From: Ostreococcus lucimarinus
Taxonomy: Eukaryota
Length of the DNA: 64,000 nucleotides
Strand: one strand, 5' to 3'
Assembly: GCA_000092065.1 (NCBI GenBank)
Contig: CP000585.1
In this document: in pieces, positions 2,238 to 10,977 of the stretch
Position numbering within the stretch: the first letter of the stretch is position 1
Layout: each line of letters starts with the position of its first letter
Program-made: the position numbers and the translations under genes
Notes under the pieces: generated by a model
What the model was told of the DNA's origin: nothing
Databases searched by the model: none
The model's input: the letters and a program-made list of their open reading frames with translations, nothing else

Positions 2238-3638
2238 TCAGTGAAGGTACATGGCGACGACGACGGTGACGTTGTCGCTCGATCCTCGATGCATACTCGT
2301 ATCCAGAAGTTCCTGGGACGCGGCCGTACAGGCCGCTTCGATGGCTTTCTTGTCGGTCGATGTACACTTGCCTTCGCTCAAGACGCCGCGCGTGGCGAGT
2401 ATTTTGCGAGCAATGTCACCCGCCTCTTGATCTCGAATGACGTCCCACATGCCGTCAGAGGCGAGAATAATGAAATTGATATCTTCGGTGAGCTCGTAAC
2501 GCGACACGTCTGGTTCTGCGGTGACGCCAGAGTCTTTCGGTCGCTTGAAATCGATGTCCCCGAGCGAACGCGAGACGGCCAAAGCCGCTCGCACGGGTTT
2601 GTACGGATGATCCGCGATGACTCGCCAGCAGCCGCAAAATTCAATCTTGCCCCCCACTGCGGTTATTCTGCGCCGTTCATTCGACATCGACGGCTTGTGG
2701 TCTTCGGTCATGGCGCGAGTGCGTCCATCAGCGTAGCTGACGACTGCTCTAGAGTCGCCAGCATGCGCTGTGAAGAGCGCGCCGCCGATTTGCAAGACGC
2801 ACACCGCCGTGCTCCCGTCTCGCCTGCCCTCCGCGGCGGTGCTGTTGAGAATTTCGTCGTCGCAATCCATGTACATTTTCTTCAAAGACGTTTCCATATC
2901 AACGTTGAACCGCGTGAGTCTTTCCGGGCACGACGGCGACGAATCTTGTAAGAGCACGTCTGGCGCGAGAAAAGTGTGCATGCGTTCGCTTGCAAACTGC
3001 GCCGCCCAGTCACCGTTGTGACCATCGTACACGCCCAAAAACGAACGACGAACGCCATCGCAACCCGTCAACCCAAAAGGTTTCAGCTCAGTCACGGCGC
3101 TGTACCTGTCCTCCATGTACGCCCGCTGTCCTTGTTCGAAAGCCACGCCGACGACGACCTGGGCGCCCACCAAAGGAATATTCGCCTCGCCATCCGCCGT
3201 CGCCGTCGCCGCCTCGCTCACTTCATCGGACAACGGCGGACTCGCGCGCGCGGAATCTAAATCTCTCGCTCCCCCAGAACTCGTAGATTCCGATCCCATA
3301 TCGACATCCTCGCGCGCTTTCGCGCTCTCATCCGTCGTCGCGCGCGCCTTTTCGCGTCGCTCTCGTCGACTCTTCCCGTGCTTCCCCTTCCTCCGGCGTT
3401 TCTCTCGCGCCTCCCACGCCTCCGCCGCCGCGTTCGCCTCCCCCCGTCTCTTCTCCTGACCCACCGCGCGCGCTTCATTCGTCTCGCGCGCCTCCTCCTC
3501 GCTCGACGACCCCGCGCCTCGGCGTTCGCGCGTCGCCTTCGCCCCGTCCCTCGCGCCCTCATCCCTCATCACCCCCTCCCGTCCTCGTCCGGCGTCCTCC
3601 ATCGCTCCGCTTTCGCTCGCGTCCGCGCGAACCATCAT
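2238..3638 (-). CDS. PP2C-type (PPM family) serine/threonine protein phosphatase.
   Basis: Catalytic-domain motifs are present: AFEQGQRAYMEDRYS, FLGVYDGHNGDWAAQF, TAHAGDSRAVV, LAVSRSLGDIDFK, ILASDGMWDV and GSSDNVTVVVA. The real ATG pair (MM) is at 3638/3635. The N-terminus is a long acidic/basic low-complexity extension. Confidence 0.8.
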   Translation of the reverse strand: MMVRADASESGAMEDAGRGREGVMRDEGARDGAKATRERRGAGSSSEEEARETNEARAVGQEKRRGEANAAAEAWEAREKRRRKGKHGKSRRERREKARATTDESAKAREDVDMGSESTSSGGARDLDSARASPPLSDEVSEAATATADGEANIPLVGAQVVVGVAFEQGQRAYMEDRYSAVTELKPFGLTGCDGVRRSFLGVYDGHNGDWAAQFASERMHTFLAPDVLLQDSSPSCPERLTRFNVDMETSLKKMYMDCDDEILNSTAAEGRRDGSTAVCVLQIGGALFTAHAGDSRAVVSYADGRTRAMTEDHKPSMSNERRRITAVGGKIEFCGCWRVIADHPYKPVRAALAVSRSLGDIDFKRPKDSGVTAEPDVSRYELTEDINFIILASDGMWDVIRDQEAGDIARKILATRGVLSEGKCTSTDKKAIEAACTAASQELLDTSMHRGSSDNVTVVVAMYLH

Positions 3639-4003
3639 CGATCGTCGTCCCGCGCCGAGCGCGTCTCCCGCCGCCGCCGTCGCGACGCGCGTCGCGCGCG
3701 CGGATTCGAACGTTCACGATGCCGCGCCGCCGGTCCGCGTTCGCGCGCGTCGCGCGTCGCGCGCCGTCGCGCGTCGCGCGCGCGCGTCGAGCGTCGCGAG
3801 ACGCGCGCGCTCGAGTCGATCGCGCGCTCTTCGCGCGCGTCGCGCGTCGCGTCGCGCGTCGCGGAGCGTCGACCGGCGGCGCGCGCGCGGCGGGAAAAGC
3901 GCGCGAAGAGCGCGCGCGCGCGCGATCGGGGGTCGTATTGAAACACCCGGAAGTACTATCAACGCGCACGCCCGAGATGCGGATCACGCGCCAGCGCTGG
4001 CGG

Positions 4004-4403
4004 CCCGTGCGCGCTGTGTCCGTATAAAGACGCGCGAAGGACCCATGTGCGCGCTGTGTCCGTATAAAGACGCGCGAAGGACCCATGTGCGCGCTGTGTC
4101 CGTATAAAGACGCGCGAAGGACCCATGTGCGCGCTGTGTCCGTATAAAGACGCGCGAAGGACCCATGTGCGCGCTGTGTCCGTATAAAGACGCGCGAAGG
4201 CCCGTGTGCGCGCTGTGTCCGTATAAAGACGCGCGAAGGCCCGTGTGCGCGCTGTGTCCGTATAAAGACGCGCGAAGGACCCATGTGCGCGCTGTGTCCG
4301 TATAAAGACGCGCGAAGGCCCGTGTGCGCGCTGTGTCCGTATAAAGACGCGCGAAGGCCCGTGTGCGCGCTGTGTCCGTATAAAGACGCGCGAAGGCCCG
4401 TGT
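4004..4403. repeat. Minisatellite of 10 tandem copies of a 39/40-bp unit, GTGCGCGCTGTGTCCGTATAAAGACGCGCGAAGG(A)CCC(A)T. Each unit contains a TATAAAG box.
   Basis: I counted the units directly. Units 1-4 and 7 carry ...aaggacccat (40 bp). Units 5, 6, 8, 9 and 10 carry ...aaggcccgt (39 bp). The last unit ends about 60 bp upstream of the ATG at 4465. The array sits in the 826-bp spacer between the divergent PP2C gene (start 3638) and the TPR/J-domain gene. Confidence 0.9.
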
Positions 4404-4464
4404 GCGACGAACGTCGACCGGCGCGAGCGTTTCGCGAGCGTTTCGAACGCCAGACGACGACGCC

Positions 4465-7122
4465 ATGGCGCGCGTCGACGTCGAGCGCGCGGCGCGCGCG
4501 TCGAGCGCGCGCGAGGCGAGCGACGCGGGACGACGCGCGCTCGCGATGGGGGAACACGCGCTCGCGCGGGCGTTTTACGACGACGCGCTGGCGATGATGA
4601 CGGAAGACGCGACGGACGAGGCGAGGGACGAGCGGGAGGGGCGACGACGGCGCGCGGAGGTGATGGCGAATCAGAGCGCGTGCGCGCTGGCGGTCGAGGC
4701 GTGGGACGACGCGATGGAGCGCGCGGAGCGGGCGATCGCGTGCGATGAGGGGTACGCGAAGGCGCACGCGAGACGGGCGGCGGCGCTGCGAGGGAAGCGG
4801 GAGTACGCGCGCGCGAGGGAGAGTTTGAAGGTGTGTCGCGCGTTGCTCGCGCGGGAGGGGGAGACGAAGATGATTCGTGACGTGGACGCGATGGTGGCGG
4901 AGATAGACGCGGACGAGGCGCGAGGAGAACAAGCTGCACGCGTGGGGATGCAAGTAAAGATGGGATCGAAGGCGCAGGCGAAACCAAACTTTTCAGCGGC
5001 GACGACGAAGGCGAAGAAGGTGGTGACTTTCGATCCAAAGCTCGACATAGATTGCGACGAGGATGTGTTCGATTCGCGAGCGTCTCAACCGCCGAGTCGG
5101 CGTTCGTCGTCGAAGCCCATGCTGATGGATCTAGGCGTGTTGGCGGTGGAAAAGGCGATCGAGATGCAACGCGCCGTCGTCGAAGCTAGAGTCGAGGGAG
5201 GCTTCGAGCACAAGCGATGTAAGATGTGCGGCAACGTGTGTCACGCAAAACTCACCGCGTGTTCGTCGTGCTGCTTGCCGCTTGTATCGGTGGATTCTTA
5301 CGAGCCGGCGACTTTGCCGCGCGCGGGCGCTGAGGCGATTTACGAGAGCGATTCTGACGACGGTGAGGAGAACGCGACGACGACGAGCGCTGAGAAAGAC
5401 GCTGAGCCGTCGTATCTCGACTCTGATCCTTGGTGGGTGAGATATTACACCCGCTCGGCGCTGACCGAGCCGACGCACTCACGTGGTTTGGACCCGGCGC
5501 TTCGATCGAGTTACGCCGCGCTCGACGTTGCGCCGGGGAGCGACGAAGTCACTGTGCGCGCGGCGTTTAGAAACGCGCTCGCGCGAGCGCACCCCGACGC
5601 CGGCGGATCCGCAAAGGAGCTAGACGTGGTAGCGAGAGCTTATGACGCGATATCTCTCGACTTTTGGCGACATGATGAAGGCGCAGCGCGATTGCGTTTG
5701 CAGTCTCGAAGGCTCGCCGACGGATCGATTGAATTCTTCGACTCGGCGAATGAAGACATATTCGTCGTACTCGAAGTTTACAGAAACAGAGAAGCAGAGC
5801 ACACGTTGAAACGGTTATTCAGCGAAGCTTCCGATCCTTCGCGCGTCTACGTCGGCGTTACATGGCAATACAAGTCCACGACGCCGCCGCCCGACGCGCT
5901 CGGCGCGCGCATCGACCGCTTGCACACGAACGTCTACGTACTGACAGAGGAAATCCAAAAGCGCGCGGCGGACGTGAAAGATCCGGTAGAGCAGGAGAAA
6001 TATTTGACTAAAATGCGACGCTTGCAACTCAAAGCTCAGCGAACGGAAGACGCGGAGGAAAAGAGGTGTCACTCAGCAAGGGTGCTCGAAGCTCGTTTCC
6101 GAGATCACGTGCGAGAGACTCACATGCCGTGGGACGCTTCGGAAGGTCCATCGTACGCGCGACATTTAGCGATGCGCAAATGGGGTGGGGAAAAGTATGT
6201 TTTGCACATTGACGCCATGACGGTCGTCGACAAGGGATGGGATGAAATCTTGGTGTCTGAACTCGAACGCTGCGGCGACGACAAACGCGTACTCACGGCT
6301 GCGCCGTTAGGATACGAGCTTAAAACTCAACCGGTCGTCGAAGAAGAGACGTTCAGACAAATGTATCAGACCGACGTGTACGGCACGATCAAAGATCGGC
6401 TGCCAGCCGTGAGTGCTCTCGGTGAAATCGATCCCGCGCGCGCGCCCGCGATTACGTGCGCGCGCGAATTCGGCGAGTCGTTGTTCCGCACGCACGCCAG
6501 GCAACTCGCGGAGGTTCCGAGCGAGCCGACGCCGGCGCTCTTCTTCAACAGTAGTTTTGCGTTCGCGCGCGCCGAGGCTTTCGTCAGAGACGCCCCGCCC
6601 GACGCCCACGCGCCGTTCTTACATCTAGGGGAAGACTTGAGCGCGAGCGCGAGGCTGTACACGCGCGGCTGGAACTTGTGCACGCCCGCGCGCGTTCCCG
6701 TGTTACGCTGCTACTCGAACGCGCCGCGCGCGATGTGGATGGAAGATCACCGTTCGGGTAAAATGCTGTACGCCGACGCGCGTTTCGGCGTCGGTAACGA
6801 ATCCGACGCGGCGCGGCGAGAATTTCTCAATTTACTCTCGCGCCGGCGCGTCCTGCAGTTGGTCGCCGCCGCGGACGACAGCTCGCAGACCTCCCGGGAC
6901 GATCCCGTGCGTTTCACGCGCGCCTACGGCGCCGGGCGCGACAGATCCATCGAGTCATTCATCGAGCACATCGGCGTCGACTTCACCGCGAAACGAATCT
7001 CGACGCGCGCCGCGTGCGGCGGACACGACGGCGCGTTCGTCGCGTCTTCGAAATCGCTTCCCGCGCCGTTCGCGAGCGCTCGGACGGGCCCGAGCGAGCG
7101 CGCCGCGCGTCGGTATGTGTAA
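4465..7122 (+). CDS. Multidomain protein with N-terminal TPR repeats, a J (DnaJ) domain with an HPD motif, and a C-terminal GT-A glycosyltransferase-like domain (Pfam 'GlcNAc' / Gnt1-like).
   Basis: TPR-like helices are seen in ALAMGEHALARAFYDDALAMM...AKAHARRAAALRGKREYARARESL. The J domain reads YAALDVAPGSDEVTVRAAFRNALARAHPDAGGSAKELDVVARAYDAISL. The C-terminal domain begins IFVVLEVYRNREAEHTLKRLFSEASDPSRVYVGVTWQ...YVLHIDAMTVVDKGWDEIL...FLHLGEDLSASARLYTRGWNL, which resembles the opening of Gnt1-type GlcNAc-transferase domains. The first ATG in this frame is at 4465 (MARVDVE...). Confidence 0.6.
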   Translation: MARVDVERAARASSAREASDAGRRALAMGEHALARAFYDDALAMMTEDATDEARDEREGRRRRAEVMANQSACALAVEAWDDAMERAERAIACDEGYAKAHARRAAALRGKREYARARESLKVCRALLAREGETKMIRDVDAMVAEIDADEARGEQAARVGMQVKMGSKAQAKPNFSAATTKAKKVVTFDPKLDIDCDEDVFDSRASQPPSRRSSSKPMLMDLGVLAVEKAIEMQRAVVEARVEGGFEHKRCKMCGNVCHAKLTACSSCCLPLVSVDSYEPATLPRAGAEAIYESDSDDGEENATTTSAEKDAEPSYLDSDPWWVRYYTRSALTEPTHSRGLDPALRSSYAALDVAPGSDEVTVRAAFRNALARAHPDAGGSAKELDVVARAYDAISLDFWRHDEGAARLRLQSRRLADGSIEFFDSANEDIFVVLEVYRNREAEHTLKRLFSEASDPSRVYVGVTWQYKSTTPPPDALGARIDRLHTNVYVLTEEIQKRAADVKDPVEQEKYLTKMRRLQLKAQRTEDAEEKRCHSARVLEARFRDHVRETHMPWDASEGPSYARHLAMRKWGGEKYVLHIDAMTVVDKGWDEILVSELERCGDDKRVLTAAPLGYELKTQPVVEEETFRQMYQTDVYGTIKDRLPAVSALGEIDPARAPAITCAREFGESLFRTHARQLAEVPSEPTPALFFNSSFAFARAEAFVRDAPPDAHAPFLHLGEDLSASARLYTRGWNLCTPARVPVLRCYSNAPRAMWMEDHRSGKMLYADARFGVGNESDAARREFLNLLSRRRVLQLVAAADDSSQTSRDDPVRFTRAYGAGRDRSIESFIEHIGVDFTAKRISTRAACGGHDGAFVASSKSLPAPFASARTGPSERAARRYV

Positions 7123-7194
7123 AGCGCGCGTCTCCGGTCGCCAATCCATCACTGCACCGCGCGCTCGTCGATTCGCGCGCGCGCGGTCGTCGCG

Positions 7195-8301
7195 ATGCGA
7201 TCGTCGGCGTCGGCGTCGCGCGCGCCGCCGCGCGCGCGACGGCGCGCGCGCGCGCGGCGCGCGGCGCGCGATGGACGCGCCGCGACGCGTCGCGACGCCG
7301 GCGCGCGCGCGCTCGCGGACGTCGCGCGCGTCGTCGCGCTCGTCGGGACGCTCGGCGCGAGCGCGGCGGAACGGTTCGAGGCGCGCGCGCCGGACGACGG
7401 CGTCGCGAGCGCGGTGGCGAGCGCGGTGGCGCTCGTCGCGGGCGCGGCGGGGATGGCGATGAGCCTGGAGCGCGAGACGGACGCGCGCGAGGCGGCGCTC
7501 GCGGATAAAGTGCGCGCGCAGGCGGACGCGATGGCGGACGCGGCGTGGGAGAAGATCGAGGCGAGCGAGGCGAGCGCGGAGGCGGTGAGGCGCGACGTCG
7601 CCGCGCGAGGGGTGGCGCGAGTGAACGGAGTGATGCGGGAGGACACGGCGAGGGCGACGGAGGCGTACGTGCGCGAGACGCTGCGGACGAACGACGCGGG
7701 AGGGGATGGGAGGAATTTATCCGTGGAGTCGTTCGGGAACGTGTATTGCAAGAAGAATAGGTGGGATTTGAAACTCGCGTACGACGCGCCCGTGCGCGCG
7801 GCGCTGCGGGAGTGCGTGGCGTCGATGGGGGAAGCGCTGACGGCGGTGTGCGGCGCGGATGCGAAACTCGTCGAGCTCGCGGCGTTGGTGAGCGACCCGG
7901 GGTCGACGCGACAGCCGGTGCACCCGGACACGGCGTACAGGAGAGATCCCTCCGTGTTCACGTGCTTCGTGGCGCTGCAGGACGTCGAGCGAGACATGGG
8001 TCCGACGCTGTTCATCCCAGGAACGAACAACGCGCAGGCGCACGTCGAATTTAGGGAGGGTAACGAACGCGAAGGGCCAGTGTTTCGTCGACCGTACGAG
8101 CTCGGCGTCATCTCTCGCGGCGATGCGACTTTGTTTGATAGCAGAACGTTGCACTGCGGAACGGAAAACGACAGCTCGCGACGACGAGTGTTGTTTTACT
8201 TTTCGTTTCAACGAGCGGACGGCGACAATCCAAACGCCGCGATTAGCACGATTAGAACCGAGTTGCGTGACAAGTACACGCTCGCAGATTTATTGGCTTA
8301 A
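7195..8301 (+). CDS. Phytanoyl-CoA dioxygenase (PhyH)-like Fe(II)/2-oxoglutarate oxygenase, paralog A.
   Basis: HxD...H facial-triad context is present: TRQPVHPDTAYRRDPSVFTCFVALQDVERDMGPTLFIPGTNN...ATLFDSRTLHCGTEN. The ATG is at 7195. The N-terminal 90 aa are Ala/Arg-rich, either a targeting peptide or an over-extension. Confidence 0.6.
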   Translation: MRSSASASRAPPRARRRARARRAARDGRAATRRDAGARALADVARVVALVGTLGASAAERFEARAPDDGVASAVASAVALVAGAAGMAMSLERETDAREAALADKVRAQADAMADAAWEKIEASEASAEAVRRDVAARGVARVNGVMREDTARATEAYVRETLRTNDAGGDGRNLSVESFGNVYCKKNRWDLKLAYDAPVRAALRECVASMGEALTAVCGADAKLVELAALVSDPGSTRQPVHPDTAYRRDPSVFTCFVALQDVERDMGPTLFIPGTNNAQAHVEFREGNEREGPVFRRPYELGVISRGDATLFDSRTLHCGTENDSSRRRVLFYFSFQRADGDNPNAAISTIRTELRDKYTLADLLA

Positions 8302-8306
8302 GATGT

Positions 8307-9401
8307 TTAATGATTATACGACGACGAATCCATGGACGCCATGCGTCCCGCCGTGAGGCGCATGTCGAAGACGTCGCTTCGTATGCTCCACTCCGCGCCC
8401 GCATTTCTACGCGTCGGGGCGTCAGGAATGGGAGGTTTCAAAAACGTCAGCGTCATCAACGCGCGACGCCCGTATTCGTTCGCACCGCCTTGGTGAAATG
8501 TGCGCGCATCGTACAACACGGCATCGCCTTTACGCAACTCGGCGTCGCAACACCTCGATTTGGCGAGTCGCGCAAACTGTTCTTCGTTCCACTTCGTCAC
8601 CGGAAACGCGTCGTGTGACGCCTTGTCTTGCGTGCCGAGCACAAAACACGTCGGTCCCATCTCCGGGATGACGTCTTGTAGCGCTATGAACAAAGAATAC
8701 AGCGGCGCGTGCGGCGCGTCGAACGCCACATCCGGATGCAAAACTTGTCTATCCGCCCCTCGTTCTGTCGCCAGCACGCTCATCTCCACCATCATCGCCT
8801 CCGCAGTTGCGTCTTCGACGTGCTCTAATATCGAATTCACCCCTCCTCGACCGCACGCTCGCAACAGCAAATCACGCGTGGCCCCATCGAATCCGAGCTT
8901 GACGTCGGTGCGCCGCAACGCGTCCCCGTACGTCGCCTTGACGGAATCACAAATCACGTTCAACTCCCCGAGCACCGCATCACACGCATCGTGCGGGACG
9001 ACATCTTTCAAAAATACCGCCCCATCGCGCTTCAACACCGCCGCGGCGTCGCGCGCGTCGTCATTCGTAATTATCCTTCGCGCCGCCGGCGCCGCCGCGA
9101 GCGCCCCGCCTCGCACCATCGCCTCGCGCTGCGCCGCGCTCTCCACTCTCAGGTACGTCGCGAGCGCGACTTCGGGCGATGAAGGTCCGAGTCCGTCGTC
9201 TTCACCGCCGTCCACGGCGTCGAGCGCCGGATCGACGACGGCGGTGACAAAGTCACTGATTCGTCTCCATACATTCGTCCGCGTCATCGTCCTATCGCGT
9301 CGCGACGTCGCGGCGCTCGTCGACGCGCGCCGCGACCGCGAGACGCGATCGCTCGACGCCGCGCGCGCGGCGACGGCTGGCGACGCGACGACGCGCGTCA
9401 T
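8307..9401 (-). CDS. PhyH-like Fe(II)/2-oxoglutarate oxygenase, paralog B, convergent with paralog A.
   Basis: The core ADRQVLHPDVAFDAPHAPLYSLFIALQDVIPEMGPTCFVLGTQD...AVLYDARTFHQGGAN is clearly homologous to the core of 7195..8301. The ATG is at 9401 (MTRVVAS...). The two stop codons are 5 bp apart. Confidence 0.6.
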   Translation of the reverse strand: MTRVVASPAVAARAASSDRVSRSRRASTSAATSRRDRTMTRTNVWRRISDFVTAVVDPALDAVDGGEDDGLGPSSPEVALATYLRVESAAQREAMVRGGALAAAPAARRIITNDDARDAAAVLKRDGAVFLKDVVPHDACDAVLGELNVICDSVKATYGDALRRTDVKLGFDGATRDLLLRACGRGGVNSILEHVEDATAEAMMVEMSVLATERGADRQVLHPDVAFDAPHAPLYSLFIALQDVIPEMGPTCFVLGTQDKASHDAFPVTKWNEEQFARLAKSRCCDAELRKGDAVLYDARTFHQGGANEYGRRALMTLTFLKPPIPDAPTRRNAGAEWSIRSDVFDMRLTAGRMASMDSSSYNH

Positions 9402-9503
9402 GACGACCGCGAAGTGACGTCAAAAAGTGTCACTTTTTGCGCATAAAAACTCCGCGTCACACGCGCGCGCGAGCGACCGCGGCGACCGCCGAGACGACGC
9501 GGT

Positions 9504-10977
9504 GATGACGTCCAAACCCGCGTCTTCGAAGTCCGCGGGGAAGCGCGCGGCGGAAGCGCGCGGGCGCGACGCGGGCGGCGGCGGCGGCGGCGCCTTTGCG
9601 AAGTGGCTTCGGGACAACAAAGTTGAGCTCGACGGCGTGGAGGTGGCGCGATTCGCGCGCACGGGGCGCGGCGTGCGAGCGACGCGTGATTTGCGCGTCG
9701 GTGAAGTCGTCGTGAGCGTTCCGGACGATGCCGTGCTCACGGTGGATGCGTGCGCGGTGAAGAAGGAATTGGGGGAGTTCGTCGGCGACGGGGACGACGA
9801 GGCGCCGTCGCCGCGGCTGGATAAAGAGCTGTTGGTCATCGCGGTGATGTGCGAGATGTGCGCGGGTAAGTCGAGCGCGTGGTGTGAGTATTTGGAGACC
9901 GTGCACGAGGCCGTGCGCGTCGGACACTCCGTGTTGGCGTGGGACGACGAACAGGTGACGGCGCTCTTCGGCACGGACGCGTGGCGAGACGCGTACGAAA
10001 ACGACGACGAGACGCTCGACCTTCCGATGATGACGGAGGAGCATTTTGAAAACGTTGTTACACTGTTTTTCAAGCTCTTTCCAAAACTGGCGAGCGGACT
10101 TTCTGTGGAAGCGCTGCGCGAACTTCATTTCGCGGCGACGGCGATGGTGGCGGGGTACTCGTTCACCCTTGGCGACGACGAGATTCAGGCCATGGTTCCG
10201 TTCTGGGACATGCTCAATCACGCGCCACCGTGCGAGGCTTCGGTGCGGCTGCATCACGATCAAAAGAATGGATGCTTGCAAATGATTACCGTGCGTGGAG
10301 TGAAGAAGGGCGAGGAAGTGTTCAACACGTACGGGCCGCTGCGAAACGCCGAGCTGTTGCGACGATACGGCTTCGTTTTGCCGCGGAACCCGCACGGTGG
10401 TACCACGGTAGGCTTGGCCGAGGTGATTCAGGCTGCCATGGGGGCAAATCCGCTCGTTGTGGACGAGCTGCCGCTTCGTTTAGCATGGCTCGAGTCTCGC
10501 GGTTTGGCGGACGAGGAGCTCAGCACGAGATTCTTCGTGCACCGGACTGGACGCCCGAGCGATAAACTTTTAATCGCGATGCGTTTGCTCACGCTTAAGC
10601 CGGAAGAGATGACGGCGCTCATAGAAGCCGACTTTGATGACGAAGAGCAGTTGATGCTTTTAGAAGGAAACGATGAAGAACGAACAGAGCAGTCATACAT
10701 GGTCGGCGCGTCGTTGCAATTTTTGGGCATGTATGCCAAATCGCGTTACGCCGAGTCCATGAAGGCGTCTCGTTTGACGTATAAAATGTACGCCAGTGTG
10801 TCGCCGCATGTGCAGAAGCATGAGAGTATCTATCGTGCGTGGGCCGCCGCTGTGGTGCGCATGGATGAGCAGCGTGCGTTGACGAAGCTTGGACGATGGA
10901 CGTACCACCCCGGACGATCCGAAGACGCGCTTTTGCACGCGTGGCCGTTTCCCGTGGCAGACGAAGAGGGGAGGTAG
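9504..10977 (+). CDS. SET-domain protein lysine N-methyltransferase with a Rubisco-LSMT-type substrate-binding C-terminal domain (SETD3/SETD6/LSMT-like).
   Basis: The SET N-region reads VELDGVEVARFARTGRGVRATRDLRVGEVVVSVPDDAVLTV. The SET core reads MVPFWDMLNHAPPCEASVRLHHD...GEEVFNTYGPLRNAELLRRYGFVLPRNPHG. The track start is GTG; the first ATG is at 9504 (MTSKPASS...). Confidence 0.65.

Follow-up and report, generated by a model that had tools for sequence, protein, structure and literature searches.

A 64,000-nucleotide stretch of contig CP000585.1 from the alga Ostreococcus lucimarinus (assembly GCA_000092065.1; hereafter the window, from whose first letter all positions are counted) carries on its plus strand a gene at 4465-7122. 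From the N terminus, its product consists of a TPR domain, a linker, a C4 zinc ribbon, an acidic stretch, a J domain and a glycosyltransferase (GT) domain of family GT60. Comparison of homologous sequences indicates that this fusion is real and conserved, not a merged gene model, and that it arose once. The GT60 domain appears, by phylogenetic placement, to be close in ancestry to cytoplasmic GT60 enzymes fused to prolyl hydroxylases (PhyA-Gnt1-like, Skp1-type). Additionally, alignments indicate that the Ostreococcus/Micromonas branch has other residues in place of the histidines predicted to bind Mn2+ in this domain, with the rest of the domain under purifying selection. We discuss what these features may imply for a probable Hsp70 co-chaperone that contains a glycosyltransferase fold.

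The reading frame and its product

The stop-free frame begins at its first ATG (4465) and comprises 885 codons and a stop at 7120-7122; the corresponding entry in the open reading frame (ORF) list, 4402-7122 on the plus strand, begins with GTG. The original prediction, made from the letters alone, described a single-exon protein of 886 residues in the order TPR, J, GT. That order holds over one uninterrupted ORF, conserved in homologues and with no internal in-frame stop across its 885 codons, and the length needs correction by one residue. Both peptides quoted at the time are present in the translation: ALARAHPDAGGS is residues 371-382 and includes the HPD motif, and IFVVLEVYRNREAEHTLKRLFSEASDPSRVYVGVTWQ is residues 432-468 (IFVVLEVYRN...), the opening of the match to the Pfam family PF11397.

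Residues 67-885 are 100% identical to the O. lucimarinus CCE9901 protein XP_001417797.1 (UniProt A4RXQ3), named 'predicted protein' or 'J domain-containing protein' in public records. The annotated start of this 819-residue model is Met67, which lies inside the TPR domain, so that the first TPR motif is cut off. Codons 1-66 (4465-4662), which the model lacks, are kept in homologues and encode that motif. An O. tauri model, OUS47905.1 (814 residues), looks truncated at the 5' end in the same way. Both public models appear, from these comparisons, to be too short at the 5' end, and a corrected RefSeq model for O. lucimarinus should begin 66 codons further upstream.

A word-indexed search reached close relatives only, and an exhaustive search of representative proteins extended the set of homologues. 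Uninterrupted full-length homologues of 800-990 residues fall into more than 12 clusters at 90% identity and come from many independent assemblies. They include other Ostreococcus lineages, Micromonas, Pycnococcus/Pseudoscourfieldia, Prasinococcus capsulatus and the haptophyte Diacronema lutheri; the earlier suggestion to look for the fusion in related algae thus finds it kept across several algal lineages. The architecture varies among them. The Micromonas protein XP_002500566.1 ('glycosyltransferase family 60 protein') has the zinc ribbon, J and GT60 domains without the TPR domain, and the version in Pycnococcus provasolii and Pseudoscourfieldia marina is 837-840 residues long and annotated as 'J domain-containing protein'. 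The Diacronema protein P0331 (EukProt) reads J, TPR, zinc ribbon, J, GT60, with matches of 63.7 bits to DnaJ and 32.9 bits to TPR_2, both significant by Pfam.

That a TPR/J co-chaperone gene and a GT60 enzyme gene were read through as one ORF, through an error of gene model or assembly, is scarcely credible, even though two public annotations point that way. One P. provasolii record splits the orthologue into a 284-residue J protein (XRB09969.1) and a 483-residue 'polypeptide alpha-N-acetylglucosaminyltransferase' (XRB09970.1), and the RefSeq O. lucimarinus model is shorter than the ORF. However, the latter is truncated at its N terminus only and spans both J and GT60 domains, and the other Pycnococcus/Pseudoscourfieldia records give a single protein, as in the 840-residue GHP12437.1 of P. 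provasolii. Independently assembled sequences from many species have the same continuous ORF, and neither a stop nor a frameshift interrupts it at the junction; the junction region (residues 400-430) and, like it, the linker show conservation and purifying selection. Against a close sister lineage, the ratio of nonsynonymous to synonymous substitution rates (dN/dS) comes to 0.28 for the whole and stays below 1 for each segment (TPR 0.57, linker 0.34, zinc ribbon 0.07, J 0.20, GT 0.21). The features of the gene are collected in Table 1.

Table 1. Features of the TPR-J-GT60 gene and of the region before it
Feature	Positions	Strand	Residues	Basis
Single uninterrupted ORF, 885 residues plus stop	4465-7122	+	1-885	ORF list, translation, full-length uninterrupted homologues
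TPR domain, co-chaperone type	4492-4929	+	about 10-155	Family profile against PDB; AlphaFold2 (AF2) helices, predicted local distance difference test (pLDDT) about 70-80
Conserved linker, motifs RxGMQMxMG, KPxF, RVSFDPxLDxD, KPMLMELGVxAVE	4945-5199	+	161-245	Alignment
C4 zinc ribbon, HKRCKMCGNVCH-x5-CSSCCLPLV	5200-5289	+	246-275	Invariant alignment columns
Acidic Ser/Asp/Glu-rich stretch, predicted disordered	5341-5424	+	293-320	Alignment, AF2
J domain; HPD at residues 376-378 (5590-5598)	5500-5700	+	346-412	Pfam, family profile, AF2
GT60 (PF11397) GT-A glycosyltransferase domain	5755-6987	+	431-841	Pfam, AF2, Foldseek
Helical-hairpin insertion, about 60 residues, beta-2/beta-3 of GT domain	5926-6069	+	488-535	Segment lengths; AF2 helices, pLDDT about 90
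D583-A584-M585 in place of family D-x-H (Asp kept, His to Met)	6211-6219	+	583-585	Alignment
R748 in place of family second His	6706-6708	+	748	Alignment; pairs with GalNAc-T1 H344 (weak hhalign)
C-terminal tail, weakly conserved, predicted disordered	6988-7119	+	842-885	Alignment, AF2; dN/dS 0.69 (residues 851-885)
Minisatellite, ten 40-bp units, each with TATAAA (context only)	4007-4406			Repeat analysis

The TPR domain is weak in the single sequence (Pfam TPR_17, E=0.22) and becomes evident at family level. Over residues 10-150 or so, the family profile matches TPR structures of Hsp70/Hsp90 co-chaperones, namely SPAG1 (3.7e-9), STIP1 (4.9e-8) and PP5 (1.5e-6), and further Cyp40, SGT, RPAP3 and TOM70, with E values over the whole range of 3.7e-9 to 2e-4; more distant relatives exceed the Pfam TPR cutoffs. 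The domain has three motifs and a capping helix, with a charged insertion (residues about 48-62) between motifs 1 and 2. Aligned to approximate PP5 and Hop sequences, it keeps three of the five carboxylate-clamp residues defined in PP5 as K32, N36, N67, K97 and R101: N69, K99 and R103 are retained, and in the first helix A18 and G22 stand where PP5 has K32 and N36. Thus, EEVD binding is possible but not implied.

Between the TPR and J domains lies a zinc ribbon that the original prediction overlooked. Its cysteines (C252, C255, C266 and C269) form an invariant C-x2-C-x10-C-x2-C pattern, and judged by dN/dS no other segment of the protein is as strongly constrained. Pfam scanning assigned no family to this ribbon or to the linker before it; the ribbon has weak similarity to that of eL37 (E=0.0016), and the basal fused member P0191 gives DZR/Zn_ribbon matches.

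The J domain with its HPD motif, as first proposed, is supported at family level. Profile matches over residues 346-400 reach solved J domains (Ydj1 at 1.3e-5; DnaJ, Sis1 and DNAJB1 at 1e-5 to 1e-4), and 15 of 15 aligned homologues match DnaJ at E<=0.01, the best at 6.8e-7. Two observations would fit a degenerate domain that no longer engages Hsp70, with the N-terminal half left only to scaffold a GT60 protein or to serve its oligomerisation: the single sequence scores 18.7 bits against PF00226 DnaJ, below the cutoff of 27.8, and the loop after HPD is short (HPDAGGS). We consider this very unlikely. The HPD-x-GGS residues (H376, P377, D378, G380, G381 and S382) are invariant in the 15 aligned homologues, the profile matches are to bona fide J domains, and the segment is under purifying selection; J-like domains that have lost their function typically lose HPD. 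Relatives also exceed the DnaJ cutoff (P0320/P0331 at 63.7 bits, P0129 at 29.8 bits). A four-helix J fold (residues 344-352, 361-375, 383-403 and 405-412) is predicted by AF2 with block pLDDT of about 78-88, in a model built from a shallow alignment. That full-length run (15 sequences, mean pLDDT 50) was used only for the positions of TPR and J helices, and Foldseek with the full-length model gave no match at E<=1e-3.

The C-terminal half bears out the earlier claim of a Gnt1-like GT-A domain. It matches PF11397 ('GlcNAc', CAZy GT60) at E=3.4e-105 over profile positions 1-351 of 352. Searches of PDB sequences with GT60 profiles found no solved relative, and the fold was therefore assigned through a structure model. 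The GT domain alone, modelled with a more diverse alignment of 28 sequences, reached a mean pLDDT of 84.9 and a predicted template modelling score of 0.87, and its top 42 Foldseek matches are all ppGalNAc-transferases of family GT27 (probability 1.0, E about 1e-7). We detected no signal anchor or other hydrophobic anchor in the protein, the highest Kyte-Doolittle 19-residue mean being 1.36, and the N terminus is a conserved TPR helix. The lack of such an anchor predicts a soluble protein. The product is probably one soluble, multidomain class-C (type III) J-domain co-chaperone of the cytosol.

Ancestry of the fusion and its metal site

A profile of the GT domain, run against 1.84 billion proteins, matched 4018 representatives at E<=1e-3. 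When 210 GT60 domains were placed in a neighbour-joining tree, the 18 J-fused representatives all fell into a single clade that contains no non-fused member, with bootstrap support of 74/100 in a 73-taxon subset. It is this pattern that points to a single origin of the fusion. The sister of the clade (P0220) and seven of the ten nearest neighbours tested carry GT60 fused to a prolyl 4-hydroxylase (P4H) domain, PF13640. Such P4H-GT60 fusions make up 40 of the 192 non-J domains (21%), as against 9 of the 20 nearest to the window protein and 16 of the 20 nearest to the basal member P0191. Because its nearest relatives are P4H-GT60 fusions and it has no signal anchor, 'Skp1-type cytoplasmic GT60' is a fair label of ancestry, and in this sense the resemblance noted in the original prediction holds.

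In a stronger version, this protein would be the Gnt1 orthologue of the alga, specific to Skp1, or a derivative of that orthologue that binds Skp1; its GT60 domain would recognise (hydroxy)proline-Skp1, and its J and TPR domains would tie assembly of SCF ubiquitin ligases to Hsp70. It would be a special case of either the binding or the active reading weighed below. Its nearest relatives speak for it, as the Skp1-modifying PhyA/Gnt1 enzyme of Pythium is reported to have this P4H-GT60 architecture (PMC8724618), and so do the missing signal anchor and the knowledge that Skp1 glycosyltransferases can bind Skp1 non-catalytically (PMC13278062). However, the distance to the P4H-fused group is large (p-distance of about 0.65, in a compared set that holds no experimentally characterised Gnt1 sequence), and the fused clade carries clade-specific GT insertions totalling about 110 residues. 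We regard a role directed at Skp1 as unlikely. One insertion, the helical hairpin of Table 1, is confined to the J-fused clade and absent from its basal member P0191; the segment 468-550 has a median length of 81 residues in J-fused and 20 in non-fused GT60 domains. Two further expansions are likewise clade-specific.

Two groups of sequences in and around this tree have unusual architectures. The Diacronema protein P0331 and the P0320/P0127 clusters, which have an extra N-terminal J domain, nest among green-algal sequences. This placement suggests either that the fusion is old or that it passed between members of the marine picoplankton, and the EukProt record may be contaminated. High-scoring non-fused matches to the GT profile include giant proteins of 1,000-2,460 residues (P0311, P0312, P0118, P0116-P0125 and P0131, the last from an Alphaproteobacteria metagenome-assembled genome). 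These have two to four tandem GT60 domains, and some join P4H (PF13640), AhpC/TSA peroxiredoxin, GT2 and GT60 in one chain. By their domain content, the giant chains look like enzyme sets of the Skp1 pathway fused together.

The family consensus of GT60 contains ...LQIDSHMRF... and ...V-x-x-H-L-W-x-R-x-Y-R-P.... Its Asp and two His positions fall, by hhalign, on GalNAc-T1 D209, H211 and H344, which we take to be the three Mn2+ ligands in GT27 structures; this match is weak (E=0.085, against an approximate GalNAc-T1 sequence), with a register that fits the motif order. In non-fused GT60 domains the first His is present in 197 of 212 and the second in 196 of 212 (about 93%). The O. lucimarinus protein keeps only the Asp of the three (Table 1), and it departs from the family further in having YRN for YRD and V587/V588 for R/F. 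Since two of three predicted Mn2+ ligands are replaced, canonical metal-dependent transferase activity is doubtful.

The fused clade displays these three positions in many states: D-H-H in the basal P0149 and P0191, D-H-T in Pycnococcus, D-R-S in the Diacronema type, D-G-K, D-S-A in P0122, D-R-V in Micromonas, D-M-H in most Ostreococcus, and D-M-R in O. lucimarinus and its close relatives. Thus, the predicted ligands seem to have been replaced repeatedly, and differently, after the fusion arose. Asp583 and W592-D593 are invariant in 136 of 136 fused sequences. Moreover, non-fused GT60 domains have 43 columns with conservation of 80% or more, and the window protein keeps 35 of these (among them YR, Q468, R566, E576, D583, W592-D593, E723 and R730).

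The GT60 module as binder or enzyme

At a little short of even confidence, we lean towards the reading that the GT60 module in O. lucimarinus is chiefly a binding module, its canonical Mn2+-dependent catalysis being impaired or lost. The J domain would dock on cytosolic Hsp70 and trigger its ATPase, and Hsp70 would thereby be loaded onto, or act on, a polypeptide held by the GT60 module, which would probably bind a uridine diphosphate (UDP)-sugar as well. The TPR domain could offer a second contact with the chaperone machinery. Under such a scheme the module would be a glycosyltransferase-derived client adaptor for Hsp70, not a standard enzyme. Class-C J-proteins draw their specificity from the module fused to the J domain. 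A 2026 preprint (PMC13278062) shows that GAT1, a glycosyltransferase of Skp1, also binds Skp1 in a non-enzymatic role; by analogy this is a precedent for a binding role, not evidence on the window protein.

Several points weigh against this preference. The mapping of GT27 metal ligands onto the domain combines a weak hhalign match, motif register and a Foldseek fold, and is not a residue-level superposition. The retained columns, together with the GT dN/dS of 0.21, are the pattern that an active enzyme or a nucleotide-sugar binder would show. In the N-terminal half, the clamp is kept at only three of its five positions and the TPR domain has a dN/dS of 0.57. Finally, several lineages have a basic residue at one of the two former His positions (R748 in the window protein, Arg at the D-x-H position in Micromonas and Diacronema, Lys in P0128). 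Metal-independent GT-A enzymes such as the GT14 member C2GnT-L neutralise the diphosphate with Arg or Lys; the basic residues recall these enzymes, and by that analogy activity may survive.

The main alternative is that GT60 remains an active cytoplasmic transferase of alpha-N-acetylglucosamine (GlcNAc), or of another UDP-sugar, onto polypeptides. It would work without metal or with altered ligands (such as Asp583 and Arg748), and the J and TPR domains would bring unfolded clients bound to Hsp70, or Hsp70 itself, to the active site. We judge this plausible, though less likely than not. The full-length family match, the confident GT-A model, the retained columns with their invariant residues and the purifying selection would all suit it, and the R/K residues at a former His fit compensation for a lost metal. 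The basal fused members and the Pycnococcus protein retain D-x-H, so the fusion presumably began with an intact enzyme. However, one or both predicted ligand histidines are gone in most derived lineages, and the replacements vary by lineage (M, R, S or G at the first position; R, V, A, S, T or K at the second), which looks like relaxed catalytic constraint and not like one adaptive solution. No compensating basic residue is found in the other Ostreococcus sequences (M/H) or in P0122 (S/A). Of the original proposal, the fusion stands; its functional reading, in which an enzyme that glycosylates proteins would be tied to the recruiting of Hsp70, is not established, as M585 and R748 replace predicted ligands.

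Returning to the module as a binder, we can imagine, as a tentative extension that is less likely than not, that a cytoplasmic GT of the Gnt1 lineage lost its metal site after fusion to the J domain and became the part of an Hsp70 co-chaperone that recognises clients. Such a module may bind UDP-GlcNAc and so respond to nutrients, and Skp1 or another disordered segment bearing (hydroxy)proline would be a possible client. If this were true, SCF ubiquitin-ligase assembly or another pathway would be linked to Hsp70 in picoplankton.

Either outcome would be of consequence. If the domain is active, a cytosolic glycosylation step is physically coupled to Hsp70; if it is inactive, the clade offers a natural series from enzyme to binding module, from basal D-H-H to at least six derived, degenerate states. 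For the field of Skp1 glycosylation, the clade adds a branch of the Gnt1 lineage, known from green algae and a haptophyte, that has another partner. What most deserves experiment is how the metal site was progressively lost, and O. tauri, which supports homologous recombination, is a tractable experimental system.

Neighbourhood and comparison with known systems

Upstream, the gene is separated from a divergent PP2C gene (2238-3638, minus strand) by an intergenic region, half of which is the minisatellite of Table 1. The repeat units match at 98%, the array ends 59 bp before the ATG, and some units bear out-of-frame upstream ATGs. The window has no second copy of the array, and a comparison with nine related loci gave no exact match to its core 18-mer; the array is probably promoter or 5' region. 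A CG-rich low-complexity tract (3742-3924, with CGCGCGT-like 7-mers and 17-mers) lies in the same intergenic region, by the 5' end of the PP2C gene.

Downstream are two genes of the PhyH family of 2-oxoglutarate (2OG)-Fe(II) dioxygenases, at 7195-8301 (plus) and 8307-9401 (minus), the first beginning 73 bp past the stop. Three other Ostreococcus-like contigs have the order PP2C, TPR-J-GT60 gene, dienelactone hydrolase (PF01738), PhyH, PhyH, SET, with the hydrolase at 5632-6573, 8880-9728 and 6467-7303 in loci L002, L004 and L006. A close sister lineage (L007) has the same arrangement as the window, and neither it nor the window (7123-7194) has the hydrolase gene. The PhyH pair is syntenic in all Ostreococcus-like contigs, and Micromonas has instead a Cupin_8 (JmjC-type) oxygenase gene about 1 kb downstream. 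Given that GT60 relatives are fused to a 2OG prolyl hydroxylase, the PhyH adjacency may be more than coincidence, on the basis of synteny in one genus. As functional partners, the two PhyH proteins and the Micromonas Cupin_8 protein were set aside, the neighbourhood being conserved only among highly syntenic Ostreococcus genomes.

The gene itself is in public databases and is counted among the prasinophyte GT60s. Ulvskov 2013 goes no further than listing GT60 genes of prasinophytes, with inference of their function described as 'speculative at best', and the supplement of that paper has no GT60 entry (PMC3797821). Our searches of a paper library found no paper describing a J-domain/GT60 fusion and no description of a J partner with a glycosyltransferase fold; the original prediction likewise knew of no characterised example.

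Among known systems, the closest are Gnt1 of Dictyostelium and Toxoplasma and the PhyA-Gnt1 of Pythium, which like the window protein are soluble PF11397/GT60 proteins with no signal anchor; the window GT domain clusters by the P4H-GT60 fusions. Fusing a Gnt1-type GT to a partner module of its own pathway is a known theme (PMC8724618). The partner in the window protein, in contrast, is a front end of TPR, zinc ribbon and J domains and not a prolyl hydroxylase, and its GT domain has M585 and R748 for the histidines, the hairpin of about 60 residues and two other insertions.

The best structural matches to the GT model are GT27 enzymes such as human GalNAc-T2 (2FFU) and Toxoplasma gondii GalNAc-T3 (8UJF). 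The window domain and GT27 have in common the motif order of D-x-H, a GEE/GEN-x-x-S-x-R-x-W helix and a His-bearing strand. Their identity is only 10-15%, and the window protein is without the lectin domain, the membrane anchor and two of the three metal ligands. GAT1 of Toxoplasma is also a cytoplasmic glycosyltransferase that acts by binding, and the degenerate metal site suggests that the same may be true here. However, GAT1 belongs to GT8, is still catalytically active and has no J domain.

For the N-terminal half, the original prediction drew a likeness to DNAJC7 (TPR2/Tpr2) and DNAJC3 (p58IPK). This is apt in that a co-chaperone TPR domain precedes an HPD-bearing J domain, and loose beyond it. 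DNAJC7 and DNAJC3 have about nine TPR motifs and the J domain at the end, whereas the window protein has three motifs with an incomplete clamp, a linker of about 190 residues that contains the zinc ribbon, and an internal J domain followed by a GT domain of 460 residues. Fusions of J domains to enzyme modules are known from ERdj5/DNAJC10 (J and thioredoxin reductase domains) and from GAK/auxilin (kinase/PTEN-like and J domains). The concept common to these and to the protein described here is that the J domain brings Hsp70 to the substrate of the attached catalytic or binding module; in the O. lucimarinus protein, that module is a glycosyltransferase fold.

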